In this document: positions 9,157-32,486 of the stretch, one piece after another | How the letters are laid out: every line of letters starts with the position of its first letter | Numbering within the stretch: position 1 is the stretch's first letter | IMG/VR virus record: IMGVR_UViG_3300045988_042144 | Span: 1-43,890 of that record | Strand: one strand, 5' to 3' | Origin: a virus | Length of the DNA stretch: 43,890 nucleotides | The notes under the pieces: model-generated | The model's input: only the letters and a program-made list of their open reading frames with translations | Databases searched by the model: none | What the model was told of the DNA's origin: nothing | Made by a program: the position numbers and the translations under genes

Positions 9157-9528
9157 ATGACGATCAATGAGGCCATCAATAAGCTGCGGGACATCAAGCC
9201 CACGCAGTTCGACAACCAGACGCTCGTCGGCTGGCTGTCGGAAGTCGAGCAGAAAATCTTTCAGGAAAACATCCGCTGGCACGAGGGAACGAGCGAGATT
9301 CCCCCGTGGCCGTATGACCCGGAACAGGATATGGACACCGTGCTGCTCATCCCGGAGCCGTACAGCAGCGTATACCTTCGGTATTTGGAGGCGCAGGTGG
9401 ACTATTACAGCGGTGAGTATGTTCGGTATGCCAACAGCATGACGATGTACAACGTCGCGCTGAGTGAGTATGTGGATTGGTACAACCGCAGCCATATGCC
9501 CAAGCAGGACAACTACATTCAGATTTAG
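9157..9528 (+). CDS. Hypothetical head-tail joining/adaptor candidate (123 aa)
   Basis: ORF with RBS; position after capsid. Confidence 0.45.
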   Translation: MTINEAINKLRDIKPTQFDNQTLVGWLSEVEQKIFQENIRWHEGTSEIPPWPYDPEQDMDTVLLIPEPYSSVYLRYLEAQVDYYSGEYVRYANSMTMYNVALSEYVDWYNRSHMPKQDNYIQI

Positions 9529-12966: not shown

Positions 12967-15900
12967 ATGGCCAAGGACAAAAAGAAACGGTCTGCCAATT
13001 ACATCGGTGCTGCGGATGAGCTAGTAAGAAAGGCCAAGGCTGATCCGGAAGGCACCGCCGCCTCTGTATCGGAGTGGGAATCCTCTCAGCGGGAACAAGC
13101 AATTCAGGATCGTGCCGCCCGCGAAATTGCTGCGAAGAATCTTCGCAGCTATATTCAGAGGCATCCCAGCTTTTCCAGAAGCCAAAAGGACGCGACTGCC
13201 GCGGTTATACTCAGAGAAACGACGGATATCAATGCCGCTCGCAGGCGTGAGAATATCGGCAAGGCTCAGCGCGAAATCCAAAGTCAGAACGAGTTGACCT
13301 CGAATCCATACGCGCAGGCAATGCGTAAAACTATGCTCAACCAAGAACGTGCAAGGCTGGACAGTCTGCCGGGGTTTTCTGTGTCTGAATTGGATGCGCT
13401 TGATGACGATGAGCGTAACCGTCGTATAACAGATTGGGCAAAAAGATCGGCTGCGGTGGATCGTGGCCTGGAAAAAACCAATCAGAGCATTGACGCTTAT
13501 AATGCTGCGATGGCTCGTCAGCGCAACGACACTGAACAGGAAGAGCTGAACAAGTATATCAACAATCCCACCGCGATGGTGGCGCGCATGACCATGCTCA
13601 ATCAGGAGCGCGCGAGGCTGGACAGCCTGCCGAGCATGACTCTTGATGAGGCCATGGACTATGGTGCGCGGTCGGCTGCGGTTGATCAAGGGCTGCGCCA
13701 GACAGAGCGGAACCTCTCTGCCTATGACAAGGCAATGGAGCGGTTGAAATTGCAGCGGTATGGCGATACGGTGCGTGAAAATGCGGATTTCACAGAGTAT
13801 TCCAGAAAAGGCGCGTCTGCCGAAAACCCGGATAACCAGTGGCAAGCAGTTTGGACGGGGAACAGAGTAAAGAACCCTGTCACTTATGCCAGAGCCCAAG
13901 CCGAAAAGCCGAAGAATGCTTTTGCACGATTCATGGACAATGCGTTCAATTACGGGCAAAGCGACAGTCCGGGCGATATACAGCGCCTTGCATCCTACAT
14001 GACGAGGGATGAGGTAAACGTATACAATTACCTCTGGGCAAAGGATCAGGAAAACGGCACCAGCGACGCATCCAAGTATTTTACGGATTTGACCAAGACA
14101 CTGTTCGAAAGACAATCCGAAGGATATGTCGAAGGCGCGCAAAAATGGTCTACCGAAAGCGCAGGGAATTCCGCGCTTGCCAGCGGAACGACCGTGCTCC
14201 GCTCCCCCGCGAATGGCGTGGCATATCTGGATGCCCTTGCTACCAAAGCGCAGGGGAAAAGAATCGACCCAAGCAGCGCCACGCAAGTGCAGGCTCGTGT
14301 CAACATCGGCGTTCGAGGTGCAGTGGCGAATGAAATTTCCGACACTGTTTCCAGTGGTACGGGTTCACAGTTTCTTGGGGACGCAACGAGCTTTTTGTAC
14401 CAGACCGGCCTCTCTATAGCGGACTCGGCGCTCAACACGGCCATAACTGGAGGAAACGCGCTTGCATCTTCTGCCCTCATGGGCGGAACTGCTGCCACCA
14501 GCGCGATGCAGGAAGCGTTGGATGGCGGCGCATCTGATACGCAGGCGCTCGCAGTTGGCGGGTTGGCAGGATTCTTCGAGGCGTTCTTCGAGCGGTTCTC
14601 GATTGAGAACTTTTTGAAAATGTCCAGCCCTGCGGCAAAGGGTTCTGCGATTATGAACCTCCTGCGGCAGATGGGCATTGAAGCGTCCGAGGAACTCGGA
14701 ACGGAAGTTGCCGATATAGTATCCGAGTATCTGGTGATGCGTGACATTTCCCAGTACAAGGATGCTACTCCGGGCGAGATCGCGCAGCAAATTGCACTGG
14801 CTGCACTTGGCGGAGCCTTGTCTGGCGGCGTGATGGGCGGAACCGGTCTGCTCGTTAACAATATCCAGTCGAATCAGATCGGTAAAGCTGCATCTCGTGT
14901 CGGCGTGAGCGACAGTGTGATTCTGGACGCGCTGAATTCGAACGATCCCAGCGCACGCGCCTTGGCACAGCAAATGCTCGACGGGGAAGCAAAGACGAAC
15001 TCTCAGAATGTTGGCAAACTGTACGCCAGCCTTGCCGAGAACGGCGAATACAGCAACTACGACACCGAGGCGATCCTGCGTGCCGCTGCCGAGGAGGCCG
15101 CAGCCGAAAAGCAGCAGAAGAAGAACAGCAAAACTGCCCAGCGGCAGACTGCCTCCCAGAACGCCCAGAATGCCCCTGAGAGCGTTTCCGCGCAGGAGCA
15201 GACCAATCGCACCAACACGGAAGAAAATGCCCAGCAGACCCGCAAGCAGCCCCGCGTGGACTATGCCACGAACGTGGTGGACAACGAAGAGACTGACATT
15301 ACGGGCATCCACTCCGTCGAGGACGGCACGGTGTATGTGCAGGCGGGAGATAACGTTGTCGCGCTGAACGACGTGGAGTTTGCCAACGCGGACATCGGCG
15401 AGTTGTATGAGCGCGCCGGGAAATATGGAACGGAGGCGGCGCAGCGTTTTGTGAAGGCGTATGACGGCGGCTCTGTGGAGCAGTATGCCAAGGGCTTTGA
15501 CGCGATGTACCGAGCCGCCAGAGACGGTGTTGCCTACGACACGGCGCTGCAGCAGAGTCTCTATGTGGAGAACTACTTAAGCGAGGATCAGCGGATGCAG
15601 GCGTATGCCGCCGGGCAGAGCACCTCTTCGCAGACCCAGACGCAGGTTGCAACCAATCAGGAACAGGTTGCAACTGAGCAGCAAGTTGAAAAACCCCAGA
15701 ACACTGAGGTTTCTGCCGCTGTGCAGACCGAAACAAAGGCGGCGCAGCAAGTTAAAAAGGCAGCCAAGCCCGGCCTGACGCGCAGCTATGCGCGCGCGGA
15801 GCTGACGAGCGAGCAGCGCAGCGCCATCAAGAAGAATCGCGGCCAGCTTCAGGTGGTGGACACGCTGGCCAAGAAGTACGGGCGCGAGGTCGTGCTGGTC

Positions 15901-18900
15901 GGCAGCCTGCAGGGCATGGAGATCAACGGTCAGACGGTCGAGCAGAGCGCCAACGGCGTGTTCGATCCTTCCAGCGGACGTATCTATATCGCAGCGGATG
16001 CGCAGGACGGCGCGTTTGCCTACGTCGCCATGCATGAGCTGGCGCACAGCGTCCGCGCCGCAAGCGAGAGCGATTACAACGCCCTTCAGACCACGGTGTT
16101 CGACGCGCTGACCAAGAACGGGCAGAATGTGGACGATCTGGTCAAATACCAGATGGACACGTTCGGCTACTCCGAAGACGTGGCGCGAGAGGAAGTCGTG
16201 GCTAACTCTGCCGCGACGGTGCTGACGGACGAGGAGTTCGTGCGCAATCTGTACAACAACGAGCACAGCCTGTTTGAGCAGATTCGCAAGTTCTTCAATG
16301 AACTGGCGGAGACCTTCAAACAGCTCACCCAGAGCGCGAGCTGGAGTCAGGACGCTGCGCTCACGCCGGAGAACGTGCGCGCCATCGCAGAGGTGTTCGA
16401 CCGGGTGGCGGCGGATACGGCATACGCAGAACGGGAAAATGCTGTGAATTCTCCCCAAAATAAGTTCAATTTTGTGGATTATTCCGAGCGAGAAAAACTT
16501 GGTTGGGAGGGAAGCAAAAGCATTGTTCTTTACGAGAATGATGCACAACTTGATAGGTTCGTGCAGACTGCCATTGAAGACAAATCAATTCATAAGAAAT
16601 TGTATTTTGGCAAAATCCCGTCAGAATTGAGCACTGAAGTGTTCGAAAAAACAGGAGTTAATGTTGATGGGTACAATTTTACGCTAAGAGCGGATGAGAT
16701 CAGAAAGATACTAAAAGACCATGGACAAAGGGCAAAGGAGGCTAACAGAGGGCAACAACCAATTACGCAGAAGGACTTCGCACGAATCCCAACGGTTGTT
16801 TTGAATCCGGATAATATAAAACTTTCTGATAAGCTCTTTGAGGGGAAACCTGTAATCCTTTTTGAAAAAGAAATAAATGGGAGAAAGACGGTAGTAGCCT
16901 ATGTAACAAAAAAACACATGGATTTGACTGTGCAAACCATGTATTTTGGTAAAGAAAAAGGGAGCAGACCCACTACGCCGAGTGATGCTTCAAGCATCGT
17001 CTTGCAAACGTCCGAAACGCTTAGTGGTAATGCTCCCATTACAACGGTAGCAGAAGCATCTGACGTTGTCAAGGGGGCGGTAGAAGATATCTCTGCCAAA
17101 ACCACAGACAATAATTCTGACAGCGGCATCAAGCTCTCCGTCAAGGACGTGGAGCCTGCCGACGCGAAGAAGCTGCAGCGGGAGAACGACAAGCTCAAGA
17201 GCGCGCTGGAGAACGCGCGCGCACAGCTGCGGCTGACGGATGGGATGCAGGTGGACGAGAAGGCGGTCACTAAGCTGGCGCGCGGCATCGTCACGGATTA
17301 CAGCAGCAAGGCCGACGTGACCAAGCTCTCAAGCGACCTGTACCAGCTCTTCAACTACGCCTCTCACAGCCCGGACACCGATGCAGCGTTTTCCGAACTG
17401 AACGACATCGGCATCGGTTTGGCACGACAGGTGATCGAGCAGTCGCAGCAGGTGGACACCTCTGTATCGGAGCAGTTCTCCGATCTCAAGGACTACCTGA
17501 AGAGCACGCCCATCCGGCTGACGGACGCGCAGAAGGAGCAGATCGCGGCCTCTTACGGCAGCTTGGCCAACTTCCGCAAGGAATATCGCGGCACGATCAA
17601 GATTTCAAACGACGGCGTTGCGTTGGACACGGTGATCGGCGAAATGGCAGAGTCCTATCCGTTTCTGTACGACGGCATTCAGGGCGGCGACCTCATCGAG
17701 ACGCTGACCAACGCAGCCGACGTGACTAAGCCGCAGATCGTCAATCCGTACTACATGGATATGGACGGCGCGGCGGCTGACCTGTGGCTGGAAATCCAGC
17801 AACGGTATACGGACACGCCCATGGTGCAGACCTATGCCGACAAGCAGAAGGCCAAGCTGGTCGAGCTGAAACAGCAGCAGAAGCAGCAGATCAAAGACCT
17901 GCGCCAGCAGGCAAAGGATGAAATGGACGTTGCGCTGCAAATCGCCAAGGAACGCGCCCAGCGGCAGCAGGACGCTGCTGTGCGCGGAGAGCGCCAGAAG
18001 CAGCAGGTCAAGACCGAAAAGCTCAAGGCAAAGAACCAGCAGCTCAGAACGGACATTGAGAACGAGCGCATTGCGAACGCTATCAACCGTGCGCTGGCAT
18101 CCAAGCGGTATGCTGCACTCAAGGAGCAACGCACCGCGGATCTCAAAACCCAGCGAGAGACCATCAAAACGCGGGAAAGAGTCGGCAGGTACAAAGACCG
18201 CATCAAGGCGGCGGCAATGACGCTGTCGGCATGGAACACGTCCCCCAGCGACAAGCGGTTTGTGCCGGAGGGGCTGCGCAGGGCGGTATCCGACTTTGTC
18301 AGCGCCATCGACATGGGCTTTAAGGAGGGCAGCAAGGTCTCCGAAAACTGGAAAGCGCGGATGCGGCAGATGCAGATCGCCGTGGAGAACGCGCAGAGGA
18401 GTTCGCCCGACGTGGGCATGGCGACGTGGGATCAGGAAACCGTGGACAACCTCGCCTCGCTGACCGCGCTGATCGAGGGCAACGACAACATCAAGAGCCT
18501 CCGCGACCTGAGTGAGCCACAGCTCAAGGCGCTGGCGGACGTGCTCAACGGCATCAAGCACGAGGTCATCAACGCCAACAAGATGTTTGTCAACGGCAGG
18601 CGCGAAAGCCTTTCCAAGGCGGCGGACAGCGAGATTGAGCGGATGGGCTCCCGGAAGACCGGCAAGGTCCGCAAGCAGCTCCAGAAGATCATGGACAGCA
18701 AGCTCATGCTGGGCAACACCAAGCCTATCTTCCTGATGGACAGCCTCGGCGGCGAGTACGAGCGGATCGGCAGAGACCTTTTCAACGGTCGTACCGAGGC
18801 GGCGTTCATTCTGCGGGATTCCAAGGACTTTCACTCCGGCCTGAAAAAGCGCTACCACGTCGACAAGTGGCTGGATCAGAAGGGCGATGTGCTGACGCTG

Positions 18901-21900
18901 AACACGGAGTTCGGCGACACGATCCGGTTGTCCAGAGGGCAGGCGCTCGACGTATACGAAATGTACCAGCGCGAACAGCAGGACACGCACACGCGGCATC
19001 TTGCCGACGGCGGCATCGTGTTTAAGACCGACGCGGACGGAAAGCGCGTGGACGATACCACCGCGCATCCGATCTCCGACGCGGACATCCAGAAGATCAC
19101 GAGCTGGCTGACGGACGAGCAGATCGCCTATGCGGACGCTCTGGTGCGGTACATGAGCACCACGCTGGCGGAGGCGGGCAACAAGACCTCGCTGACGCTC
19201 TCCGGCTACAAAAAGTACACCGGGCAGCACTATGTACCGTTCAACTCTGCGAGCGATTACATCGCCCACGGAGCCGGTCAGGCGGACGGCCAGCAGACCC
19301 CGCGCCTGAAGAACTGGGGACACGGCAAGAGCATCAACGCCTTTGCCAACAACCCCGTGGTGGTGGAGAGCATCGACCAGATATTCGGCAACCACGCCGA
19401 AGAGATGGCCAAGTATGCGGGGCTGGCGATCCCGCAGGACAACATGATCCGCTACCTCAATTACAAGCAGCCCAACGAGCAGGGCAAGCGGCAGATGTCG
19501 ATGAAGTCCGCGCTGCGCGCCGCATACGGAGATAACGTGGTGCGGTACATCGACCGCTTCAACGCAGATGTCGGCGGGAAGATCACGGCGGACGTGCGCG
19601 ATCAGGAGATGGGACCGATGCTCTCCAGATTCAAGAAGGGCGCAGTGCTTGCATCCATGTCCGTTGTGGTGCAGCAGCCCACCGCATACTTCCGCGCATT
19701 CTCCTTGATGAATCCCAAATACATGAGGCTCGGCTGGACGGGCGCGTATCAGGAGGCGCAGCAGTACGCTGGCACGGCGATCATCAAGGACATCGGTGGC
19801 TTTGATATGCAGACCAGCAGGGGCGCTGCGGACTGGATACTCGACAAAAAGCCGACCAACCCGATCGGATGGACGGATAAGGTGTTTGGGACGCTGCCGG
19901 AAAAGGCGGATGCGGTCACTTGGGGTGCGCTGTGGAACTCGGTCAAGGCTGAGATTCACGGTGAGACAGGGCTTGCCATGAACAGCGAGGCGCTGCTGAA
20001 GGCGGCGGGCAAGCGCTTTGACGAGGTGATCGACTTTACGCAGGTGTACGACTCGACGTTCTCCCGCTCGGACTGGATGCGCAGCAAGAGCAAGTTCGGC
20101 AGCATGGTCACCTCCTTCATGGCGGAGCCCACGACCAGCATGAATGTGTTCATGTACTCCCTGCTGCACATTAAGGACAAGAACTACTCCGGCAAGGTAC
20201 ACTTCATCCCCGCCACGCTGGCACTGGCGGCGACCACGATCATCAACGCGGCGGTCAAAGCGGTCGTCTACGCCGCACGCGACGATGACGATTACGAGAC
20301 CTTCTGGGAAAAGTATCTGGCGCAGCTCAAGAGCGCGCTGTTCGGCGACAAGATCGAAGGGCTGCCTGACTGGCTGGGAACGCCTCTGGGCTTTGTGGCC
20401 GGAAGCGACTTCTCCGTGTTTACCCAGATTCCGCTCGTATCCGATGTCATGGAGCTTGCACAGGGCTACGACGTAACCCGCACGGACATGAACGTGGTGG
20501 GCGATGTGGTCGACGCGGCGCTCGGCCTGTTCAACGAGAAGAAGACGGTCTACACAAAGGTCAAGAACCTGATCGGCGCGGTGGGCAACCTGACCGGGCT
20601 GCCGGTCAAGAACCTCTGGCGTGACGTGGAATCGGTCGTCCGTCTCTTCGGCGTGGAGATTCCCGCCGCGACCGGCGGCACGGCGGACGGCTATGCGAAG
20701 CTCTACGAGACCATCGCGTCTGGCGATGACAAACGCGCCGAGAAGCTGCGCGACACCCTCGAAGGAAAGGGCAAGAGCAGCAAGGACATCGACACGGGCG
20801 TGGCCAAGTCGCTGATGGAAAACGACGAGCGCATCCGGCAGGCCTACGAGATGAAGGCCGAGGGCGACATCGCCGGGCTGGAAGAGCTGCGCGCGGAACT
20901 GGCGGAGACCTACGGCGAGGAAGTCGTGGACAAGGCGATCAAGCTCTACGAAAACAGCCTCAACTCCGAACTCAAAAAGAAAGCCGAGGCGCTGCTGGAA
21001 AGCGAATCCCGCATTGCAGAGCTTTACGATTACAGCGAAAAGGGCGAGACACCCAACACCGCAAAGGAGGAAGCGCTGCGGGAGCAGTTGGAGAAGCAAT
21101 ACGGCAAAGAACTTGTCGAGAAGGCACTGTCCGTCTATTCGGAACAGTTTGACGAGCTGGATTCCGCCCTCTACACGGCGGACGACATGGAGATGGTCGG
21201 CACACTGGCCTTTGAGAGCGGAAAGACCGCAGACCTCAAGACTGTCGTGGCGGAGATGGAGAAGGACAGCAAGGCCAACGACCCGAAGAAATCCGTACTG
21301 GACAAGGCCGTAACCGCCTTCAAACCCTTGTACACGGAAGCACTTGACAAGGGCTATGCGCAGAAGGCGGCGCGGATCAAGAAGGTGCTGCTGGATGTCT
21401 ACGGCAGCTACGGCATGACGGAGGAGAAGATCGACAAGTGGCTGCCGGGAGAGAAGGCGGCTGCCCTCTATGAAGCGGTGGACGCGGGAGCCTCCGTGCA
21501 GAGCCTCAACAAGCTCATCAAGGACGCGAAAGCCGCCGGGCAGAAGGACTCCAACATCATCAACAGGATCAGCAGCACCTACAAGGAAAAGATGCTGGAG
21601 GCGTGGCAGAAGGGCGACACGAGAACCTACAACCAGATTGCCTCGCTGCTGAAGAACCTGAACCTCTACGACAGCAAGGGCAAGCTCTACTACACCGACG
21701 AGCGCTTCAAGGACTGGCAGATGGCGGAGAAATACGACGATCTGCCGGAGGCGGTCAGAGCCGGAGATGCCGGTGCGGTCAAACAGTACGTTGCCAACCT
21801 GAAAAAGGACGGCTATTCGGATGGCCAGATCACGCAGCGCGTCAGCACCAACGTGCATGACGAACTGGTGGAGGCGTACCTCAAGGGCGACATGAGCACC

Positions 21901-22017
21901 TACAACAAGCTCAAAGCCATGCTGCAGTCGCTCGACCTGCACGACAAGAGGGGCAATCAGTATTACCCGGACAGCAAGATCGCAAAGTGGATCAAGGACG
22001 CGCAGGAGAAAAAGTGA
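12967..22017 (+). CDS. Giant 3016-aa virion/ejection (internal core or polyvalent-type) protein candidate with an HExxH metallopeptidase-like motif, an AT-rich inserted domain and internal repeats
   Basis: Single uninterrupted ORF with GGAGG RBS; sits between virion accessory genes and tail fibres; HELAH at aa 1023-1027 (nt about 16033-16047); long coiled-coil stretches. Confidence 0.75.
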   Translation: MAKDKKKRSANYIGAADELVRKAKADPEGTAASVSEWESSQREQAIQDRAAREIAAKNLRSYIQRHPSFSRSQKDATAAVILRETTDINAARRRENIGKAQREIQSQNELTSNPYAQAMRKTMLNQERARLDSLPGFSVSELDALDDDERNRRITDWAKRSAAVDRGLEKTNQSIDAYNAAMARQRNDTEQEELNKYINNPTAMVARMTMLNQERARLDSLPSMTLDEAMDYGARSAAVDQGLRQTERNLSAYDKAMERLKLQRYGDTVRENADFTEYSRKGASAENPDNQWQAVWTGNRVKNPVTYARAQAEKPKNAFARFMDNAFNYGQSDSPGDIQRLASYMTRDEVNVYNYLWAKDQENGTSDASKYFTDLTKTLFERQSEGYVEGAQKWSTESAGNSALASGTTVLRSPANGVAYLDALATKAQGKRIDPSSATQVQARVNIGVRGAVANEISDTVSSGTGSQFLGDATSFLYQTGLSIADSALNTAITGGNALASSALMGGTAATSAMQEALDGGASDTQALAVGGLAGFFEAFFERFSIENFLKMSSPAAKGSAIMNLLRQMGIEASEELGTEVADIVSEYLVMRDISQYKDATPGEIAQQIALAALGGALSGGVMGGTGLLVNNIQSNQIGKAASRVGVSDSVILDALNSNDPSARALAQQMLDGEAKTNSQNVGKLYASLAENGEYSNYDTEAILRAAAEEAAAEKQQKKNSKTAQRQTASQNAQNAPESVSAQEQTNRTNTEENAQQTRKQPRVDYATNVVDNEETDITGIHSVEDGTVYVQAGDNVVALNDVEFANADIGELYERAGKYGTEAAQRFVKAYDGGSVEQYAKGFDAMYRAARDGVAYDTALQQSLYVENYLSEDQRMQAYAAGQSTSSQTQTQVATNQEQVATEQQVEKPQNTEVSAAVQTETKAAQQVKKAAKPGLTRSYARAELTSEQRSAIKKNRGQLQVVDTLAKKYGREVVLVGSLQGMEINGQTVEQSANGVFDPSSGRIYIAADAQDGAFAYVAMHELAHSVRAASESDYNALQTTVFDALTKNGQNVDDLVKYQMDTFGYSEDVAREEVVANSAATVLTDEEFVRNLYNNEHSLFEQIRKFFNELAETFKQLTQSASWSQDAALTPENVRAIAEVFDRVAADTAYAERENAVNSPQNKFNFVDYSEREKLGWEGSKSIVLYENDAQLDRFVQTAIEDKSIHKKLYFGKIPSELSTEVFEKTGVNVDGYNFTLRADEIRKILKDHGQRAKEANRGQQPITQKDFARIPTVVLNPDNIKLSDKLFEGKPVILFEKEINGRKTVVAYVTKKHMDLTVQTMYFGKEKGSRPTTPSDASSIVLQTSETLSGNAPITTVAEASDVVKGAVEDISAKTTDNNSDSGIKLSVKDVEPADAKKLQRENDKLKSALENARAQLRLTDGMQVDEKAVTKLARGIVTDYSSKADVTKLSSDLYQLFNYASHSPDTDAAFSELNDIGIGLARQVIEQSQQVDTSVSEQFSDLKDYLKSTPIRLTDAQKEQIAASYGSLANFRKEYRGTIKISNDGVALDTVIGEMAESYPFLYDGIQGGDLIETLTNAADVTKPQIVNPYYMDMDGAAADLWLEIQQRYTDTPMVQTYADKQKAKLVELKQQQKQQIKDLRQQAKDEMDVALQIAKERAQRQQDAAVRGERQKQQVKTEKLKAKNQQLRTDIENERIANAINRALASKRYAALKEQRTADLKTQRETIKTRERVGRYKDRIKAAAMTLSAWNTSPSDKRFVPEGLRRAVSDFVSAIDMGFKEGSKVSENWKARMRQMQIAVENAQRSSPDVGMATWDQETVDNLASLTALIEGNDNIKSLRDLSEPQLKALADVLNGIKHEVINANKMFVNGRRESLSKAADSEIERMGSRKTGKVRKQLQKIMDSKLMLGNTKPIFLMDSLGGEYERIGRDLFNGRTEAAFILRDSKDFHSGLKKRYHVDKWLDQKGDVLTLNTEFGDTIRLSRGQALDVYEMYQREQQDTHTRHLADGGIVFKTDADGKRVDDTTAHPISDADIQKITSWLTDEQIAYADALVRYMSTTLAEAGNKTSLTLSGYKKYTGQHYVPFNSASDYIAHGAGQADGQQTPRLKNWGHGKSINAFANNPVVVESIDQIFGNHAEEMAKYAGLAIPQDNMIRYLNYKQPNEQGKRQMSMKSALRAAYGDNVVRYIDRFNADVGGKITADVRDQEMGPMLSRFKKGAVLASMSVVVQQPTAYFRAFSLMNPKYMRLGWTGAYQEAQQYAGTAIIKDIGGFDMQTSRGAADWILDKKPTNPIGWTDKVFGTLPEKADAVTWGALWNSVKAEIHGETGLAMNSEALLKAAGKRFDEVIDFTQVYDSTFSRSDWMRSKSKFGSMVTSFMAEPTTSMNVFMYSLLHIKDKNYSGKVHFIPATLALAATTIINAAVKAVVYAARDDDDYETFWEKYLAQLKSALFGDKIEGLPDWLGTPLGFVAGSDFSVFTQIPLVSDVMELAQGYDVTRTDMNVVGDVVDAALGLFNEKKTVYTKVKNLIGAVGNLTGLPVKNLWRDVESVVRLFGVEIPAATGGTADGYAKLYETIASGDDKRAEKLRDTLEGKGKSSKDIDTGVAKSLMENDERIRQAYEMKAEGDIAGLEELRAELAETYGEEVVDKAIKLYENSLNSELKKKAEALLESESRIAELYDYSEKGETPNTAKEEALREQLEKQYGKELVEKALSVYSEQFDELDSALYTADDMEMVGTLAFESGKTADLKTVVAEMEKDSKANDPKKSVLDKAVTAFKPLYTEALDKGYAQKAARIKKVLLDVYGSYGMTEEKIDKWLPGEKAAALYEAVDAGASVQSLNKLIKDAKAAGQKDSNIINRISSTYKEKMLEAWQKGDTRTYNQIASLLKNLNLYDSKGKLYYTDERFKDWQMAEKYDDLPEAVRAGDAGAVKQYVANLKKDGYSDGQITQRVSTNVHDELVEAYLKGDMSTYNKLKAMLQSLDLHDKRGNQYYPDSKIAKWIKDAQEKK

Positions 22018-26178: not shown

Positions 26179-26385
26179 ATGGCAGTGTATCAGGCAAAGG
26201 ATGCCAACGGCGAGGTTGTGAATCTGGTGGAGATCGATCCGGGGCAGATCGAGGGCTGGCAGAAGCTGACGGGGCTGAAGCTGGAGCTGCCGCCGGAGCC
26301 GGACCCAGCAGAAGAGCCGAACCAGCCCGATCTGACGACGATGGAGGCGGCGCTCAAGGAACTGGGGGTGAAGACCCGTGACTAA
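26179..26385 (+). CDS. Small hypothetical protein (68 aa)
   Basis: ORF with GGAGGGA RBS. Confidence 0.45.
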   Translation: MAVYQAKDANGEVVNLVEIDPGQIEGWQKLTGLKLELPPEPDPAEEPNQPDLTTMEAALKELGVKTRD

Positions 26386-26803
26386 GCTGAGAAGCGACAT
26401 TCTTGAACAGGCGAAGGCGATCCGCGCAGCGACGCAGACCCTCGCGGCCTATGCGCCGGATGATGCGGCACTGGCGGCTCCTACAGTGCTGTTTGACGAA
26501 TGGAGCGCGGACAGCGTGGCATATGCCAAGGGCGACATCCGGCAGTACAACGGCCTGCTGTACCGCTGCGCACAGCCGCACACGTCGCAGTCGGACTATA
26601 CGCCGTCCACGTCGGTATCCCTCTGGACGCGGATCTCAGACCCGACGCAAGAATGGCCGAAGTGGATTCAGCCCACAGGAGCGCATGACGCATACGCCAA
26701 GGACGCAAAGGTCAGCCACAACGGCAAGCACTGGGTCAGCACGGCGAACGATAACGTGTGGGAGCCGGGCGTGTACGGCTGGGAGGAGGCGACCGAGGCA
26801 TGA
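26378..26803 (+). CDS. Carbohydrate-binding protein with two CBM5/12-like modules
   Basis: YAKGDIRQYNGLLYRCAQPHTSQSDYTPSTSVSLWTRI and YAKDAKVSHNGKHWVSTANDNVWEPGVYGWEE fit the CBM_5_12 pattern (Y.GD.V.YNG..Y.C.Q.HTS...W.P...W). Confidence 0.6.
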   Translation: MTKLRSDILEQAKAIRAATQTLAAYAPDDAALAAPTVLFDEWSADSVAYAKGDIRQYNGLLYRCAQPHTSQSDYTPSTSVSLWTRISDPTQEWPKWIQPTGAHDAYAKDAKVSHNGKHWVSTANDNVWEPGVYGWEEATEA

Positions 26804-27885
26804 TCTACAAGACGAAGGATGGCAAGACCGCTCCGGCAATCGCCGTGAAGACCGCAGAAGCGGCTGCCAAAGAATTCTCGGTTCCCGTGGGGCTGCTCCT
26901 GGGCACGGTGGAGCGCGAGAGCGATTTCCGGCTGGGGCTGGTGAGCACGGCGGGCGCGGTCGGTCCATGCCAGTTCAAGCCCAAGTACGCCAAGGACTAC
27001 TTCCGCTACGCGGGGTTTGAATTTGACCTCTACGGCTGGGGGAGCATCCGGGGCATGGCGGCGGTGTACGCCTACTACGCCAAGCTGGGCGAAAAGCGCT
27101 ACAGGTACACCGGCCTTAACAGCTGGCGGTACGCGCTGTGTGCGCACCGCTGGGGGCAGAACAGCCTGCAGGCGGTGAGCCTTGAATCCAAAGGCCGCGT
27201 GGAGGATGTCGAGGACTGCATGAGGCGGAACGGCCTCTGGTACGGTGAAAGCGTCATCGAGAAACCTCCCGAAGCGGTTGACGATGGCGTGCCGTCGCGC
27301 GCGGCGCAGTGGGCACTGTCCAAGGTAGGTTGCCGCTACAGTCAGTCAGAGCGCCTGAAGGAGAAGGTGTTTGACTGCTCCTCGCTGGTGGCGCGGGCAT
27401 ACGCGGCACAGGGCGTGGAGTGGGACAAGGTCGGCAGAGAGGTTCCGCTCTCCTGCGAGGAGGTCTACAGCGACCAGTTTGAACTGCTGTGGCCTGCCGA
27501 TTACACCAAGATCGGCAAGACATTCGGCGGCGTGAATATCATCAACAAGGCGCGTCAGCCGGGGGACGTGCAATTCCTCTGCACGAGCCGGTCGACGAGG
27601 AGAGCCAACAAGATCACCCATGTGACCATGGTGGCCAACCAAAGCGAGATCGTCCATGCCAGAGGGACGGCCTACGGCGTGCGCCGGGACGACATCGAAC
27701 TGTACAAGGGCAGGGTGTGCGCGGTGATCCGCTACAACCCCAACGCGCCGCTGCGGCTGGGAATGCGCGGTCTGCGCGTGAAGGTGCTGCAGGAGCGGCT
27801 GAACCGGCGCGGCGCGAACCTTGAGGCCGACGGCGTGTACGGCAAAAAGACTGCCGAGGCGGTCAAAAAATTCGGGGAGGCCTAA
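26800..27885 (+). CDS. Three-domain endolysin: lytic transglycosylase (SLT), NlpC/P60 peptidase, C-terminal PG_binding_1
   Basis: VERESDF...GAVGPCQF (SLT E-S / GLMQ-like); FDCSSLVARAY (NlpC/P60 Cys); LRVKVLQERLNRRGANLEADGVYGKKTAEAVKKF (PG binding); ATGA overlap with upstream gene. Confidence 0.8.
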   Translation: MIYKTKDGKTAPAIAVKTAEAAAKEFSVPVGLLLGTVERESDFRLGLVSTAGAVGPCQFKPKYAKDYFRYAGFEFDLYGWGSIRGMAAVYAYYAKLGEKRYRYTGLNSWRYALCAHRWGQNSLQAVSLESKGRVEDVEDCMRRNGLWYGESVIEKPPEAVDDGVPSRAAQWALSKVGCRYSQSERLKEKVFDCSSLVARAYAAQGVEWDKVGREVPLSCEEVYSDQFELLWPADYTKIGKTFGGVNIINKARQPGDVQFLCTSRSTRRANKITHVTMVANQSEIVHARGTAYGVRRDDIELYKGRVCAVIRYNPNAPLRLGMRGLRVKVLQERLNRRGANLEADGVYGKKTAEAVKKFGEA

Positions 27886-28477: not shown

Positions 28478-28786
28478 ATGGACAAGTGGATGTATGTGGT
28501 CATGGCCGTGTTGGCGGCGGGGATCGGAATGACGCTGTTTGTGGCCTTTATACTGTGGTACAAGGGCAAGCTCTCCGACGCGGACTTTGAGCGCGTCAAG
28601 GAGTGGGTGCGCATCGGCGTTGGCGCTGCAGAGCAGATTTTCGGCCCCAAGACGGGCGCACAGAAGAAGGCCTATGTGATCGGCCTGCTGGAAGCGATGG
28701 GCATTGAGGTCAACGATAAGATCAACGCACTCATCGAGGCCATGGTGGGCGAGCTGAATGCCAAGCCCACAGACAAGGAGAAGTAA
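28478..28786 (+). CDS. Putative holin, LL-H-like (single N-terminal TM)
   Basis: TM VVMAVLAAGIGMTLFVAFILWY then a charged region; about 100 aa; position in the lysis cassette. Confidence 0.5.
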   Translation: MDKWMYVVMAVLAAGIGMTLFVAFILWYKGKLSDADFERVKEWVRIGVGAAEQIFGPKTGAQKKAYVIGLLEAMGIEVNDKINALIEAMVGELNAKPTDKEK

Positions 28787-29023
28787 ATGCTTGCGGAGAT
28801 CAGCCATTGCACGCTTGCCGCAACCGAGTTGGGTGAGCTGATCGACGAGAACATCATCGGGAGAAACGCAGAGCGGAACAGATTGATCTGCCGCAGGGTT
28901 TTTCTGGACGGCGTTCCCTATGAGCGGGTAGCCGAGGAATTCGGCCTCTCCCGCACCCAGATCGTGCGCGTGCTCCAAGCGGGGTTCGGCGTGCTGGAAG
29001 GGAAAATACGACCATTTTCGTGA
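28787..29023 (+). CDS. Small sigma-70 region-4-like / LuxR-type HTH protein (78 aa)
   Basis: RVFLDGVPYERVAEEFGLSRTQIVRVLQAG resembles sigma region 4; a perfect palindrome TTTTCGTGA-GG-TCACGAAAA overlaps its stop. Confidence 0.5.
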   Translation: MLAEISHCTLAATELGELIDENIIGRNAERNRLICRRVFLDGVPYERVAEEFGLSRTQIVRVLQAGFGVLEGKIRPFS

Positions 29024-29053
29024 GGTCACGAAAATGATATGAAACAGGGCATA

Positions 29054-29095
29054 AACAGGCTCTTTCGCGTAATCGCGAAGGGGCCTGTTTTTTTG
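29054..29095 (+). terminator. Strong rho-independent terminator ending the late/lysis operon
   Basis: Long stem AACAGGCTCTTTCGCG-TAAT-CGCGAAGGGGCCTGTT followed by T7. Confidence 0.8.
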
Positions 29096-29121
29096 CACAA
29101 TAAAAGCAGGAGGTGCGGCAA

Positions 29122-29496
29122 ATGAGCAATTACATGAACCCCTACATGAATCCGTATGGGCAGCGTCCCATGTGGCAGCAGCCCGTCACGCCTCAGATGC
29201 CCGCCAGACAGCTTCTGCGCGTGTCGGGGATCAACGGTGCCAAGGCTTTCCAGATGAACCCGAACGAGGTCGTGGCGCTGTTTGACGAGGGCGACGACAT
29301 CCTCTATGTCAAGTCCACCGACAGCGCAGGATTCCCGACGATACGGCGCTTCCGCTTTGCAGAAGAGGCGGAGACTCCTGCGCCCGCTCCGCCCCCGGCG
29401 GAATACGTCACCCGGAAAGAGTTCGACGAGCTGAAAGGAATGGTGATGGCTTATGGCAAGCAGCCTGTTTCGGAACCTCCCGCCCAGCAGGCCTAA
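29122..29496 (+). CDS. Hypothetical Tyr/Pro-rich protein (MSNYMNPYMNPYGQRP..., 124 aa)
   Basis: ATG nine nt after AGCAGGAGG; ORF track 29113..29496. Confidence 0.5.
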   Translation: MSNYMNPYMNPYGQRPMWQQPVTPQMPARQLLRVSGINGAKAFQMNPNEVVALFDEGDDILYVKSTDSAGFPTIRRFRFAEEAETPAPAPPPAEYVTRKEFDELKGMVMAYGKQPVSEPPAQQA

Positions 29497-29662
29497 CAAC
29501 CCGCTGCAGATGATCGCGGAATTCAAAAAATTCGCGCAGGGCATGACTCCTCAAAAGGCAGAGCAGGAGATCAACCGCCTGCTCCAGTCCGGCCAGATGA
29601 GCCAGCAGCAATTTGAGCAGCTCAAGGAGCAGGCTCAGGACTTTATGCAATTTTTGAAGTAA
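29453..29662 (+). CDS. Small Gln-rich hypothetical protein (start uncertain; overlaps the previous gene out of frame)
   Basis: ORF track only; no clear RBS. Confidence 0.3.
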   Translation: MASSLFRNLPPSRPNNPLQMIAEFKKFAQGMTPQKAEQEINRLLQSGQMSQQQFEQLKEQAQDFMQFLK

Positions 29663-29705
29663 GCCGGTGCGCAACGGTTTGCGAATAAATGAAAGGAGAA
29701 TCACC

Positions 29706-30311
29706 ATGGAAAACTTCAGTCTTTCCGACATCGCTGCCGCGACTCGCGGCAATGACGGTGAGGGATTCGGCAGCGGCTGGTTCCTGATCGTCGTGCTCTT
29801 CCTCTTCATGTTTGGCTTCGGCGGCAACGGCTGGAATCGCCAGATCGACTACGGCCAGTATGCGACCGCTGCCAGCCAGCAGGAAATCCTGTTCGGCCAG
29901 CAGTTCGGCCAGGTCAACGACCGCCTGACCAATCTGGGCAACGGCATCTGCAGCCTTGGCTACGAGATGCAGGGCGGCATCGGTCAGCTCGGCAAGGAGA
30001 TGGCGCTGGCGCAGAACGGCACGAACATGGCTCTCATGCAGACCGGCAACGCCATTCAGGGGCAGCTGGCAGAGTACTGCTGCAACACCCAGCGCGCTAT
30101 CGACGGCGTGAACGCGAACATCGATGCGAAGTTTGCGGCGCTGGAAAAGTCCCAGCTCGAACAGCGCATTACGCAGCTTGAGCAGTCGAACAACCAGCTC
30201 TTCGTCCGTGAGCAGCTGTACGGCGTAGTCCGCTATCCCAACGGCTACTCCTACAACGCGGGGCCTTCGCCCTTCTGCAATGGCGGCTGCTGCAACGGCA
30301 ACAACTTCTAG
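29706..30311 (+). CDS. Membrane protein with an N-terminal Gly-rich TM (GFGSGWFLIVVLFLFMFGFGGNGW), Gln/Asn-rich coiled coil and Cys-rich C-terminus (FCNGGCCNGNNF); YjcZ-like sporulation-protein resemblance
   Basis: Internal ATG after AAAGGAGAA; sequence features read directly. Confidence 0.5.
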   Translation: MENFSLSDIAAATRGNDGEGFGSGWFLIVVLFLFMFGFGGNGWNRQIDYGQYATAASQQEILFGQQFGQVNDRLTNLGNGICSLGYEMQGGIGQLGKEMALAQNGTNMALMQTGNAIQGQLAEYCCNTQRAIDGVNANIDAKFAALEKSQLEQRITQLEQSNNQLFVREQLYGVVRYPNGYSYNAGPSPFCNGGCCNGNNF

Positions 30312-30333
30312 GCCCTGTTGGCCGACTTTGAAA

Positions 30334-30358
30334 GGCAGGGCAATCCCTGCCTTTTTTG
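30334..30358 (+). terminator. Rho-independent terminator
   Basis: GGCAGGG-CAAT-CCCTGCC followed by T6. Confidence 0.75.
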
Positions 30359-30374
30359 CGAAAGGAGAAGAATC

Positions 30375-30779
30375 ATGGCAAAGAGTCTGATCTATACGGT
30401 AAACACCACGGGCGCCGCCGCGCCGATCGGCAGCACCGTCCCTGTGGGCAGCGTCATCCGGCGGTACGGCAAGTGCATCAGCGCCGAGGGCGAGAGCATC
30501 GTGCTGCTTGAGCCGGGAGATTATCTTGTGACGATGACCGCGACCGCGACGGCAGCGACCGTCGGAAACGTGGCGCTTGGCATCCAGCAGGACGGCGTCG
30601 CCGTGCCGGGAGCGACCGCAACGGAGACCGTTGCGACAGCAGGCACCGAATACGTCAATCTGTCGTTCGCTCCCATCGTGCGCGTGAGATGCTGCGGCAA
30701 TGCGCGTCTCACCGTTGTGGTTGCCGGTACGACTGAGCCGACGATCACCAACATGGCGATTGGAGTGGTTAAGGTATGA
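30375..30779 (+). CDS. BclA C-terminal-domain-like (TNF/C1q-like jelly-roll) protein, exosporium-protein-like
   Basis: GDYLVTMTATATAATVGNVALGIQQDGVAVPGATATE...APIVRVR...LTVVVAGTTEPTITNMAIGVVKV parallels the BclA CTD pattern (G.Y.IT.IANTATASVLG..TIQVNGVPVPG...APIVIQ...VIVTG...IIIEKV). Confidence 0.55.
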   Translation: MAKSLIYTVNTTGAAAPIGSTVPVGSVIRRYGKCISAEGESIVLLEPGDYLVTMTATATAATVGNVALGIQQDGVAVPGATATETVATAGTEYVNLSFAPIVRVRCCGNARLTVVVAGTTEPTITNMAIGVVKV

Positions 30780-31078
30780 TGGACGAGTTGACGATGCTCT
30801 ACGAGCAGATCGACGAAGAGATCAACGATGCGCGGGACTATGCCAAGGACGCGATGCACTTCCGCGAGAAGAACCCCGGCATGGCGCAGGCATACATCAA
30901 ACTTTCATCTGACGAGCTGCAGCACGCGCAGGTCCTGCAGGGACTGGCGATGCAGCAAAAAAAGGAGCACCCGTCCTCCGAGGAGGCGCGGATGCTCATG
31001 GAATGGATCAGAGCTTGTCAGGACGAGCGCATGAAAGATGTTGTGAAGACTCACGAAGCGTACCAGAAGAGCCGATAA
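30776..31078 (+). CDS. Hypothetical helical protein (100 aa)
   Basis: ORF overlapping the previous stop. Confidence 0.45.
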   Translation: MMDELTMLYEQIDEEINDARDYAKDAMHFREKNPGMAQAYIKLSSDELQHAQVLQGLAMQQKKEHPSSEEARMLMEWIRACQDERMKDVVKTHEAYQKSR

Positions 31079-31104
31079 GGGCATACAACATTTGTGCTTT
31101 CTGC

Positions 31105-31372
31105 GTTTTGACGACAGTTTGACGACATTTTACACCCTTTTACAGCTTGTTACACCTGCTGTGTAGCGCACGAAATGCCTGAATTATCGACTTTTTCGGC
31201 ATTTCTTAAAGTCAGCAGATAAGTTTCAGGTACTAGTGAAGATCCCTTCATGCAGGTTCAAGTCCTGTTTCTCGCACCATCGAAAAATCCCTTGATTCAG
31301 GCAAAAACTTGAGTTAAGGGATTTTTTGTGTTCGTTATGAAGGTATAACTTGACGACACTTTGACGACACTT
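31105..31372. other. attP-like region: tRNA 3'-end fragment (about 31240-31279, T-arm GCAGGTTCAAGTCCTGT plus acceptor 3' strand TTCTCGC-A-CCA) flanked by arm-type direct repeats TTGACGACA-N-TTTGACGACA at 31108-31127 and 31350-31369
   Basis: Sequence read directly; adjacent to the integrase 3' end; no 5' half of a tRNA is present. Confidence 0.5.
31281..31330. terminator. Bidirectional terminator between the late operon end and the integrase 3' end
   Basis: AAATCCCTTGATTCAGG / CTTGAGTTAAGGGATTT imperfect inverted repeat flanked by an A-run and a T-run. Confidence 0.55.
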
Positions 31373-32486
31373 GTACCGAGTTTTCGGTTTTTGAGGAAGC
31401 GATTCCGAGGGCTTCACGCAACATTTTTACATCTTCCTTGACGTATACGTTGGCTGTAACATTGATGTCTCTGTGGCCCAGAACTTTGGCGATGGTGTAA
31501 ATATCAACGCCGTCTCGGCGGAGTTTGGTTCCGTAGGTATGGCGGAGTTCGTGCGCAGTGACCATCGGAATGTCCGGGCGTAGCTTGCAGGCGCGCCGCA
31601 TGAAGGAAGCCATCCTCTTTGACCACGCATTTGGGCTCTGGAGATTCCCCAGTTTGTTGGGGAATAAGTACAACCCCTCGCGCGGAACGCCTCTGAGAAT
31701 GGCGCTGGCGGCCTCTGAGAGAGGATTGGTGCGGTAGGAGTCCTTCTTCGGCGGACGGATCACCACGCCCTTTCCGCGCACATCCGCGAGGGATCGGTTC
31801 ACGGAATAGGTTCCCTCCGACAGATTGATGTCGCTCCACATCAAACCGAGCATCTCACCGCGCCGCATCCCGGTTTCCAGCAGCAGCGCGATCTCCGGCA
31901 TATTCTCCTGCAGGGCGAACTGCTCCAAGAAGGCAATCTGATCGTCCGGTAGGGCATGCTTCTCATGCTCCTCTGCATCGCTGGAGAAGTTGATGTGTTT
32001 GGCGGGATTTGCCCGCAGGATACCATTGTCCACGGCGGTGTCGAAGATGCCCATCAGGCACATATGCATCTTTTTGAGCATGGATACGGAATAATCCGTC
32101 TTCGCCGCGTAGAATTTCTGGATGTTGATGGGCTTGATGTTGATGAGCTTCAGCCTTCCGAGCGCAGGCGAGAGGTGATTCCGTATGGTGTTCTCGTAGG
32201 TGAACTGATAGGTGTTTTCGTCCACATGAGGCTGGATGTAGGTTTTCAGCCATTCCTGCGCCCACTCTCTGAAGGTTACATCGTCGTCGATGATCTCGGC
32301 GGCGGATCGCAATGCAGACTCGGATTGAATCTTGTACTCTTCCGCCTGACGCACCGCGTCGGCCTTTGAGACATCAGAGTAAAAGGATTTGCGGATTGGC
32401 TTGCCGTGGATGTCGGTCCCGACGGTGATTTTGACTTCGTATCGCCCGTCGTTGCGGTTGGGCTTGGCTTTTTTTGGCCGTGGCAT
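31335..32486 (-). CDS. int: Tyrosine site-specific integrase
   Basis: C-terminal catalytic signature ...HELRHTYGTKLRRDGVDIYTIAKVLGHRDINVTANVY (R..H..R..Y); 383 aa. Confidence 0.9.
   Translation of the reverse strand: MPRPKKAKPNRNDGRYEVKITVGTDIHGKPIRKSFYSDVSKADAVRQAEEYKIQSESALRSAAEIIDDDVTFREWAQEWLKTYIQPHVDENTYQFTYENTIRNHLSPALGRLKLINIKPINIQKFYAAKTDYSVSMLKKMHMCLMGIFDTAVDNGILRANPAKHINFSSDAEEHEKHALPDDQIAFLEQFALQENMPEIALLLETGMRRGEMLGLMWSDINLSEGTYSVNRSLADVRGKGVVIRPPKKDSYRTNPLSEAASAILRGVPREGLYLFPNKLGNLQSPNAWSKRMASFMRRACKLRPDIPMVTAHELRHTYGTKLRRDGVDIYTIAKVLGHRDINVTANVYVKEDVKMLREALGIASSKTENSVQVSSKCRQVIPS

Follow-up and report, generated by a model that had tools for sequence, protein, structure and literature searches.

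What purpose is served by a block of small, conserved genes placed between the lysis genes and the integrase of a temperate phage? The block occupies positions 28787-31078 of a viral genome of 43,890 nucleotides (nt) (IMG/VR record IMGVR_UViG_3300045988_042144), the whole of which was analysed and is here called the window. A preliminary description of its sequence had seen a terminator-insulated set of morons encoding spore-surface-like proteins, which a prophage might contribute to the spore coat or exosporium of its host. Gene order and sequence conservation indicate instead that the block is one old, coherent, co-inherited cassette. The account that we favor, tentatively and at somewhat less than an even chance, is that of a self-regulated mobile cassette whose products form an assembly of a membrane-anchored stalk (P4) and a knob (P5). 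In the literature searched, we found neither the cassette as a whole nor its regulator or attenuator described; the BclA-like annotation was already present in public records, and the other families are PHROGs of unknown function. The features of the cassette are as follows.

28787-29023, plus strand: HTH78, a stand-alone helix-turn-helix (HTH) protein of 78 amino acids (aa), sigma-70 region 4/LuxR (GerE)-like; last gene of the late/lysis operon
29013-29036: perfect palindrome with 11-bp arms, CATTTTCGTGA-GG-TCACGAAAATG, spanning the HTH78 stop codon
29053-29094, plus strand: intrinsic terminator 1, with a 17-bp stem, a 4-nt loop, and a run of seven T (T7)
29094-29101, plus strand: putative -10 element (TG and CACAAT), assigned by position
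29108-29113, plus strand: Shine-Dalgarno sequence (SD) of P2, AGGAGG
29122-29496, plus strand: P2, matching phrog_21718 at 3e-15
29453-29662, plus strand: P3, a Gln-rich helical protein of 69 aa, overlapping the 3' end of P2 in another frame
29706-30311, plus strand: P4, 201 aa, matching phrog_16490
30311-30323, plus strand: small stem-loop GGCC-CTGTT-GGCC, immediately 3' of the P4 stop codon
30331-30357, plus strand: hairpin 2 with a run of six T; 10-bp stem, arms 30331-30340 and 30345-30354
30375-30779, plus strand: P5, a stand-alone protein of 134 aa, BclA C-terminal domain (CTD)/ExsFA-like C1q/TNF jelly roll with a conserved CC motif
30776-31078, plus strand: P6, a helical protein of 100 aa, half-ferritin-like, with an E...Y...ExxH motif

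Homologous loci were fetched through relatives of P4, and the window proteins supplied the hidden Markov models with which they were scored. About 36 of 40 loci preserve the order P2-(P3)-P4-P5-(P6), even where P4 identity falls to 34%, the full order being HTH regulator, terminator, P2-P3-P4, hairpin, P5-P6; the cassette order is also found in loci L041, L043, and L045. It occurs in 80 of 80 IMG/VR relatives, 60 of which have an opposite-strand integrase right after the cassette and 18 of which end no more than 700 nt from it. The usual place of the cassette is after the lysis genes, beside the phage attachment site (attP) and the integrase. It travels with unrelated tail modules, with various holins, with lysins of the NlpC/P60, M15, and CHAP/GH25 kinds, and with recombinases of the tyrosine as well as the serine type. 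It is the phage block nearest the host genes in L010 and L011; in L004 and L041 it stands with other accessory genes between the scaffold gene and that for a MuF-like minor capsid protein; and from L046, whose endolysin is 74% identical, it is missing. These varied contexts and the absence from L046 mark the cassette as accessory and mobile. Its composition does not deviate: the G+C content is 0.585, versus 0.582 for the whole window, and the G+C content at third codon positions is similar to that of other genes.

Of the moron block first proposed, the accessory character and the upstream terminator stand, as does the location suited to lysogenic conversion, adjoining attP and the integrase; separately insulated morons give way to a single co-inherited cassette. 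Downstream, the first canonical hairpin with a T-run is found at 31281-31328, past the attP core. Like phage morons and lysogenic-conversion cassettes (lambda bor and lom, or the toxin genes at the ends of Gram-positive prophages), the cassette is accessory, has a clear terminator upstream and a putative promoter element, sits between lysis genes and attP, and is mosaic among different phages. It differs from them in that its five or six genes co-evolve as a set, have a presumed regulator of their own and an internal attenuator, and are of typical composition, and its conservation to 34% identity makes it far older and more coherent than typical morons.

The carriers are hundreds of temperate phages of gut Clostridia, with hosts of the Oscillospiraceae/Lachnospiraceae type. 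P4 homologues fall into 2692 clusters at 90% identity and 479 at 50%, and 449 IMG/VR contigs encode a P4 relative. A narrow P4 alignment used as query retrieved mainly contigs of metagenome-assembled genomes (MAGs); their taxonomic labels (Bacteroides, an archaeon, Eggerthellaceae) are unreliable for phage-sized contigs and were not used as host evidence. One P4 homologue (P0042) bears the NCBI label Neglectibacter timonensis, the sole named cultured host of a related prophage, and this species is reported to be non-spore-forming (PMC11316587).

The encoded proteins

P5 matches the Pfam family BclA_C (PF18573) with E=1.7e-7 and 31.6 bits, below the cutoff of 38. Most of 96 P5 homologues bear a precomputed PF18573 hit, one is labelled "BclA protein" in nr, and many stand-alone phage homologues exist. 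A profile of 52 P5 family members matches five BclA sequences in the PDB (4e-6 to 3e-5). The AlphaFold2 (AF2) model of P5 (predicted local distance difference test score 89.2, predicted template-modeling score 0.80) is an all-beta jelly roll over residues 5-133. In a Foldseek search of the PDB, the top five matches are all BclA CTDs (E 5e-9 to 7e-8, template-modeling [TM] score 0.77-0.78, 25% identity), and the next ranks are taken by F-BclA, BxpB/ExsFA (TM score up to 0.85), EDA-A1, and C1q. The BclA-CTD-like, TNF-like fold suggested earlier for 30375-30779 is thus borne out by the family profile (E=4e-6) and by the AF2 model with Foldseek (TM score 0.78), and sequence and model together confirm P5 as a true homologue of the BclA CTD, in the form of the globular head only.

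The BclA CTD belongs to the nap of the Bacillus anthracis exosporium (PF18573; PDB 1WCK, 3TWI); P5 shares its C1q/TNF-type jelly roll, and both are expected to trimerize. P5 differs from BclA in having no collagen-like GXX region, in being phage-borne, and in being always paired with a membrane-anchored coiled-coil protein. BclA carries an N-terminal exosporium-targeting segment, a motif that P5 does not have; in P5 neither collagen GXX repeats nor such a segment was found, the jelly roll filling residues 5-133. ExsFA/BxpB, the basal-layer anchor of the Bacillus exosporium (PDB 8D02, 7R5I, 9H3D), has the same TNF-like fold (TM score 0.85 for BxpB) and differs in sharing 13-15% sequence identity with P5 and in going undetected by sequence profiles. 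ExsF serves as a hub to which fibre proteins bind through N-terminal peptides (title of PDB 9H3D), and by analogy with this peptide binding, P5 might grip the tail of P4.

P4 begins with an acidic N-terminus of about 24 aa, followed by a Gly-flanked hydrophobic transmembrane helix and, according to the AF2 model and the alignment, by a single helix of about 113 residues with a conserved mid-helix CC(C) motif. Its disordered tail carries a Cys-rich family signature, GVVRYP...PFC.GC.C, and a Cys tail is universal in the family. The transmembrane segment is strongly hydrophobic (mean hydropathy 2.3), and the flanking charges (K+R 0.56 on the N flank versus 1.0 on the C flank) weakly predict an N-out/C-in topology. 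The Gly-rich transmembrane, Cys-rich protein that the preliminary description likened to YjcZ is present, and the likeness to YjcZ is not sustained: no YjcZ-like family was matched by P4 in Pfam or NCBIfam at E<=1, or among 59 family members, and the resemblance extends no further than the Gly-flanked hydrophobic helix. Small sporulation membrane proteins of the YjcZ type are about 30-50 aa long; P4 has 201. Against Pfam, the P4 family gave just scattered coiled-coil noise (Baculo_PEP_C, TRAF, and Collagen_mid at 0.04). We also considered P4 as an i-spanin or a class III holin and rejected both: the hosts are monoderm Clostridia, and a holin is already present. A lysis role is further disfavored by the occurrence of the cassette away from lysis genes and by the absence of positive charge from the P4 N-terminus.

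P6, the small helical protein noticed at 30776-31078, can be identified further as half of a ferritin. E15, Y22, E47, and H50 are invariant in an alignment of 15 sequences, and the P6 profile matches BfrB ferritin (1.6e-5) and symerythrin (2e-3); Rubrerythrin is matched by 10 of 15 family members. The aligned part of the profile, positions 7-58, corresponds to helices A-B of ferritin, and it is because the invariant residues align to the ferroxidase helices of BfrB and symerythrin that we call P6 a half-ferritin. A complete four-helix bundle with both halves of the site is not present in its 100 aa, and P6 is predicted to need dimerization for a full di-iron site. Encapsulated ferritin, symerythrin, and other half-ferritins share with P6 the E...Y...ExxH half-site and a length of about 100 aa. 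Encapsulated ferritin differs in that the match of P6 to the EncFtn model is not significant (0.33) and no encapsulin lies nearby.

The Tyr/Pro-rich protein at 29122-29496 is likewise present, as P2. It starts MSNYMNPYMNPYG, and its richness in Tyr, Pro, and Gln (and Gly) is confined to the first 30 or so residues, beyond which lie a conserved beta-rich domain and a short coiled coil. None of 356 P2 homologues is named or has a Pfam domain, and the P2 profile found no credible match in the PDB or Pfam. P3 had been overlooked in the preliminary description. It is a real gene, matching phrog_22984 at 8.5e-12 and conserved between P2 and P4 in other loci. No signal peptide was found in P2, P3, P5, or P6, and no classical enzyme domain in any product of the cassette; with neither, the products look like building blocks of a protein assembly.

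Transcription signals and the presumed regulator

Terminator 1 upholds the earlier proposal of a strong terminator closing the lysis operon. Its arms (29053-29069 and 29074-29090) form 17 pairs, followed by T7 at 29088-29094. Two of the pairs are G-U, which work on the plus strand only, so the element acts as a hairpin in the RNA of rightward transcripts. Its region has a folding energy of -47 kcal/mol (z=-6.1), a stability reached by 0 of 200 shuffles. Nearly all loci have a hairpin and T-run separating P2 from the HTH gene, the T-run starting 34-40 nt ahead of the P2 ATG in most. A simple terminator/promoter scanner called no promoter within the studied interval and flagged neither terminator 1 nor hairpin 2, because its stem extension absorbs the T-run; folding and a repeat finder reveal both hairpins. 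Terminator 1 was also considered as a regulated terminator of the lambda-Q type and rejected, the match to phrog_79 being just 0.006 and no promoter being evident upstream of the hairpin. Regulation by read-through at terminator 1 is possible.

Downstream of the terminator, a TAnnnT hexamer lies 6-10 nt ahead of the SD in nearly all homologous upstream regions, often preceded by TG. The pattern TGnTAnnnT occurs in 12 of 29 homologous P2 upstream regions, versus 3.3+-1.7 in shuffles, and loci L030 and L033 have a perfect TGaTATAAT. The box of the window itself is weak (4/6), and there the promoter is assigned by position. From these patterns, the cassette promoter looks sigma-A-like, with an extended -10 and no -35. 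The sporulation promoter that the preliminary description had envisaged did not materialize. With patterns of the B. subtilis-type consensus, SigK/SigE sites occur in 0 of the 29 upstream regions, the SigG -10 is at chance level (2 versus 2.0 expected), and none of the SigE, SigK, SigF, and SigG patterns matches within 28700-31100 of the window.

The HTH gene ahead of the block, described earlier as sigma-region-4-like, is present and probably of the sigma region 4/GerE type, and the match of the window's own copy is weak. HTH78, whose ATG abuts the holin stop codon, matches Pfam Sigma70_r4 with E=0.002 and 18.1 bits, under the cutoff of 24.1, and region 4 of SigG with E=7e-4, also under the curated cutoff. 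Most loci have such a gene of 66-95 aa (sigma-70 region 4 or LuxR-GerE type) directly upstream of P2 and tightly packed against the preceding late genes. These positional homologues fall into several sequence families; two pass Pfam GerE (32.2 and 27.2 bits, cutoff 23.5), and one passes Sigma70_r4_2 (26.2 bits, cutoff 25.7). HTH78 is presumed to be the regulator of the cassette. The family resembles GerE, the 74-aa LuxR-type regulator of late spore-coat genes in B. subtilis, in size, in HTH type, and in lying directly upstream of a structural-type gene set. It differs from GerE and from stand-alone sigma region 4 proteins in that HTH78 is under every cutoff and is accompanied by no SigK-type promoter.

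The palindrome that spans the HTH78 stop codon is a candidate operator or a candidate first RNA hairpin. Its half-site has no other copy in the window at 0 mismatches, and close relatives keep the arms and differ in the spacer. Upstream elements vary by lineage, other loci having 2-7 tandem repeats of about 11 nt where the window has the palindrome, and both kinds are plausible sites for the HTH proteins. The repeats are phased and lie upstream of the cassette promoter or within the terminator loop (L011, about 9267-9300; L018, about 4046-4080; L034, about 563-635; L035, about 3719-3752; L039, about 5384-5440). Examples are TGACGATTTAT, TGACCAAACGA, TGGCAGATTTT, and ATTGCAAGAAT, three copies of each, with a different repeat in each lineage. 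This lineage specificity suggests sites for the small HTH regulators, or curved DNA.

The gap between P4 and P5 holds two RNA elements. About 22 of 30 non-redundant loci have, in order, a stem-loop after the P4 stop, a GC-rich hairpin with a T-run, and the P5 SD within a few bases; in the remaining 8, P4 and P5 are 0-25 nt apart or overlap and are coupled in translation. Hairpin 2 is modest when taken alone (z=-1.8), and its stem shows compensatory changes among loci. The SD of P5 (30362-30367) begins 5 nt beyond the T-run, which leaves no space for a promoter. The second terminator of the preliminary description thus exists as a hairpin and T-run, and does not insulate a separate unit, since it lies inside the cassette and P5 has no promoter of its own; on these sequence grounds we read it as an internal attenuator, or mRNA 3'-end element, between P4 and P5. 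Such an attenuator should lower the levels of P5 and P6 relative to P2-P4, with P5 and P6 read only by read-through.

The smaller stem-loop, always upstream of the attenuator hairpin, has equivalents in more than 20 loci, of two sequence types: (A)CGCTATAACAGCG(T)/TGCTTTAACAGCA and CGCCCTnTnGGCG/GGCCCTGTTGGCC. It was also seen in L009 (about 10603-10617), L020, L022, L016, L019, L028, L030, L032, and others. An Rfam scan of it gave chance-level hits only and no family. It may be a processing motif or a protein-binding RNA motif.

What the cassette might build

In the assembly that we tentatively favor, the small HTH gene rides at the end of the late/lysis operon, which terminator 1 ends, and its product would probably bind the upstream palindrome or repeats and so tune the promoter. 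P4 would be a single-pass anchor, probably trimeric, with a coiled-coil stalk of about 17 nm and a Cys-rich tail. P5, as a TNF-fold trimer of the BclA-CTD/ExsFA type, would cap the stalk or act as a hub gripping the Cys-rich tail. Between them, the two polypeptides would reproduce the anchor-stalk-knob architecture known from BclA, C1q, and TNF ligands. P3 and the Tyr/Gly/Gln-rich P2 would serve as matrix or adaptor proteins, and P6, as a di-iron half-ferritin, might shield the assembly or cross-link it. A membrane anchor, a long stalk, and a TNF-fold knob are likewise combined in TNF-superfamily ligands, C1q, and EDA-A1. P4 and P5 differ in being split over two genes and in having an alpha-helical coiled coil rather than collagen as the stalk, and beyond the fold there is no evolutionary link. 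Because P5 has no signal peptide and P4 is predicted to be C-in, the assembly is probably intracellular, unlike the TNF-type ligands, and most likely sits at the inner, cytoplasmic side of the host membrane, which in sporulating cells is also the side of the forespore that faces the mother cell. The cassette would probably serve a lysogenic-conversion or very late function.

Several points weigh against this account. The pairing of P4 with P5 is drawn from synteny, tight gene coupling, and analogy only, and the topology of P4 is a weak call from a small gap in flank charge (0.56 versus 1.0). P2, P3, and P4 have no characterized relative in the databases searched, so that a "structural kit" is an argument from composition. 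P5 has a sub-threshold match to the capsid decoration protein XM1_gp53 (PF23982; 1e-4, 22.6 bits, cutoff 27). Finally, the -10 of the window (CACAAT) is poor, and P2-P6 might therefore be transcribed mainly by late-operon read-through of terminator 1.

The spore-surface proposal, in which a sporulation promoter drives the cassette in the mother cell and the products enter the coat or exosporium, is in our judgment unlikely. P5 would then be a BclA- or ExsF-like nap or anchor, the coat would receive P4 as a Cys-rich, P2 as a Tyr-rich, and P6 as a ferritin-like component, and the HTH protein would be GerE-like. Several observations speak for this proposal: P5 is a true BclA-CTD homologue with a fold also like that of the exosporium anchor ExsFA/BxpB, the products resemble coat and exosporium proteins in having no signal peptide, and some positional regulators pass Pfam GerE. 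Cys-rich, Tyr/Gly-rich, and ferritin-like proteins are known in spore coats, and the content of the cassette echoes that composition. With an N-out/C-in topology, P4 would extend into the mother cell from the outer membrane of the forespore, and the host flank of L010 and L011 bears DUF421/DUF4363 genes, which are common in spore-formers. Other observations speak against it. Sporulation promoters are missing from the 29 upstream regions (SigK/SigE) and from the window interval (SigK/E/F/G), a sigma-A-like -10 being enriched in those regions, and there is no space for a promoter ahead of P5; besides BclA_C, no YjcZ, coat, or exosporium family is matched; the sole named cultured host is the reportedly non-spore-forming N. 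timonensis; and all inspected contexts are phage, none being a sporulation locus. A literature search on phage-borne BclA or exosporium genes found nothing relevant, and the paper "Human-gut phages harbor sporulation genes" mentions neither BclA nor coat nor exosporium.

We give an equally low probability to a place in the virion, with P5 as a trimeric capsid decoration or fibre knob and P4 and P2 as a head or neck fibre, produced very late under a dedicated promoter. The tips of phage fibres often bear C1q/TNF-like knobs, the regulator gene shares a transcript with late genes, and P5 has sub-threshold matches both to XM1_gp53 (1e-4) and to the minor head protein family phrog_2122 (0.038). XM1 gp53 is a trimeric decoration protein at the capsid 3-fold axes (PMC10457771); it and TW1 Dec are trimeric and beta-rich like P5, and differ in not being among the best structural matches of P5, which are BclA and ExsFA, with zero decoration proteins in the top 50. 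The head-module location in L004 and L041 would suit a virion protein, yet there the cassette sits among other accessory genes, and its normal place is past the lysis genes, behind a strong terminator, beside attP: an accessory rather than a structural context. The strongly hydrophobic transmembrane segment of P4 (2.3) also speaks against a virion component, as do the movement of the cassette among unrelated tail, lysis, and integration modules and its absence from L046 despite the related endolysin.

A superinfection-exclusion or defence module, in which a membrane-anchored complex would block the entry or development of competing phages, seems to us improbable. Roles of this kind are the commonest for prophage accessory genes, and the cassette is an accessory mosaic element at the prophage end, beside attP and the integrase, with a membrane anchor and, in many members, a constitutive-looking sigma-A promoter. 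Set against this are zero PADLOC hits at E<=1 for eight proteins and the absence of any nuclease, NTPase, protease, or other effector domain in Pfam and NCBIfam; moreover, known systems are mostly single membrane proteins, and five structural-type proteins with internal stoichiometry control would be atypical. No better a chance attaches to a portable, self-regulated morphogenetic kit, made up of a GerE-like regulator, a coiled-coil stalk anchored in the membrane, a knob of the BclA/ExsF type, a Tyr/Gly-rich matrix protein, and a di-iron protein for cross-linking or protection, that lays an exosporium- or nap-like layer on the host forespore or another membrane surface, which, on the forespore, would have prophages re-tailor spore transmission, adhesion, and germination across many gut commensals.

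The cassette matters because it is widespread, small, and experimentally tractable, with the BclA_C hit of P5 as its sole functional annotation. A BclA homologue, a dedicated regulator, and a stoichiometry-controlling attenuator point to a defined multi-protein structure, built in important gut anaerobes or added to them by temperate phages. If the cassette alters the envelope or spore surface, it would represent widespread lysogenic conversion affecting how gut Clostridia are transmitted and colonize; as a part of the virion or a means of exclusion, it would be new of its kind. Given the N. timonensis label of P0042, a cultured lysogen candidate may exist.

Phage setting

The window is the circularly permuted genome of a temperate siphophage of about 44 kb, with a G+C content of 58%. 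Many human-gut assemblies hold near-identical phages, and a DNA search against deposited phages matched unannotated human-faecal contigs only. The structural genes extend to about 26.2 kb and are followed by the lysis genes; the cassette comes after the holin, and downstream of it are an attP-like region, a tyrosine integrase (31335-32486, minus strand), and a repressor. The lysis genes are as follows.

26800-27885: endolysin, NlpC/P60 and PG_binding_1
28478-28786: Holin_LLH holin, among three small membrane proteins 3' of the endolysin

The endolysin has a weak SLT-like stretch at its N-terminus, then NlpC/P60, and PG_binding_1 at its C-terminus. Just before it lies an open reading frame (ORF) of 141 aa (26378-26803), whose relatives contain CBM_5_12.

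A stretch at 31252-31279, extending upstream to about 31230, resembles the 3' end of a tRNA gene, with a T-arm (GCAGG-TTCAAGT-CCTGT), an acceptor strand (TTCTCGC), a discriminator A, and CCA; an ARAGORN scan of the whole window found zero complete tRNAs. The stretch is probably the attP core of a tRNA-targeting integrase. Directly 3' of it, at 31281-31328, is a 20-pair hairpin with a T-run. Tandem 11-nt repeats (TTGACGACAnT) occur as two pairs, at 31108-31129 and 31350-31371, on either side of the attP-like core, the second pair falling within the 3' end of the integrase gene. We rejected these repeats as sites for the cassette regulator; as they flank the attP core, they are likelier to be integrase arm-type binding sites.

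Two other carriers show further arrangements. In L043 (2-5059 of an Oscillospiraceae MAG contig of 123 kb), the cassette is bordered by genes for a CHAP-domain protein and a GH25 muramidase, P5 is followed by three additional small genes, and host genes lie beyond, including a CBAH gene of the bile-salt-hydrolase type. In L008 (85,016 nt, about twice the phage), the integrase comes after the cassette, which is the arrangement of the free phage, and this contig is probably a head-to-tail dimer assembly rather than an integrated prophage.

At the tail-module position of the window, a giant ORF of 3016 aa (12967-22017, plus strand) contains an internal PBECR3 nuclease domain (Barnase/EndoU/ColicinE5-D/RelE-like) at residues 1217-1331, and its orthologue in relatives bears MuF_C. 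It resembles a polyvalent or toxin-bearing protein of tape-measure size.

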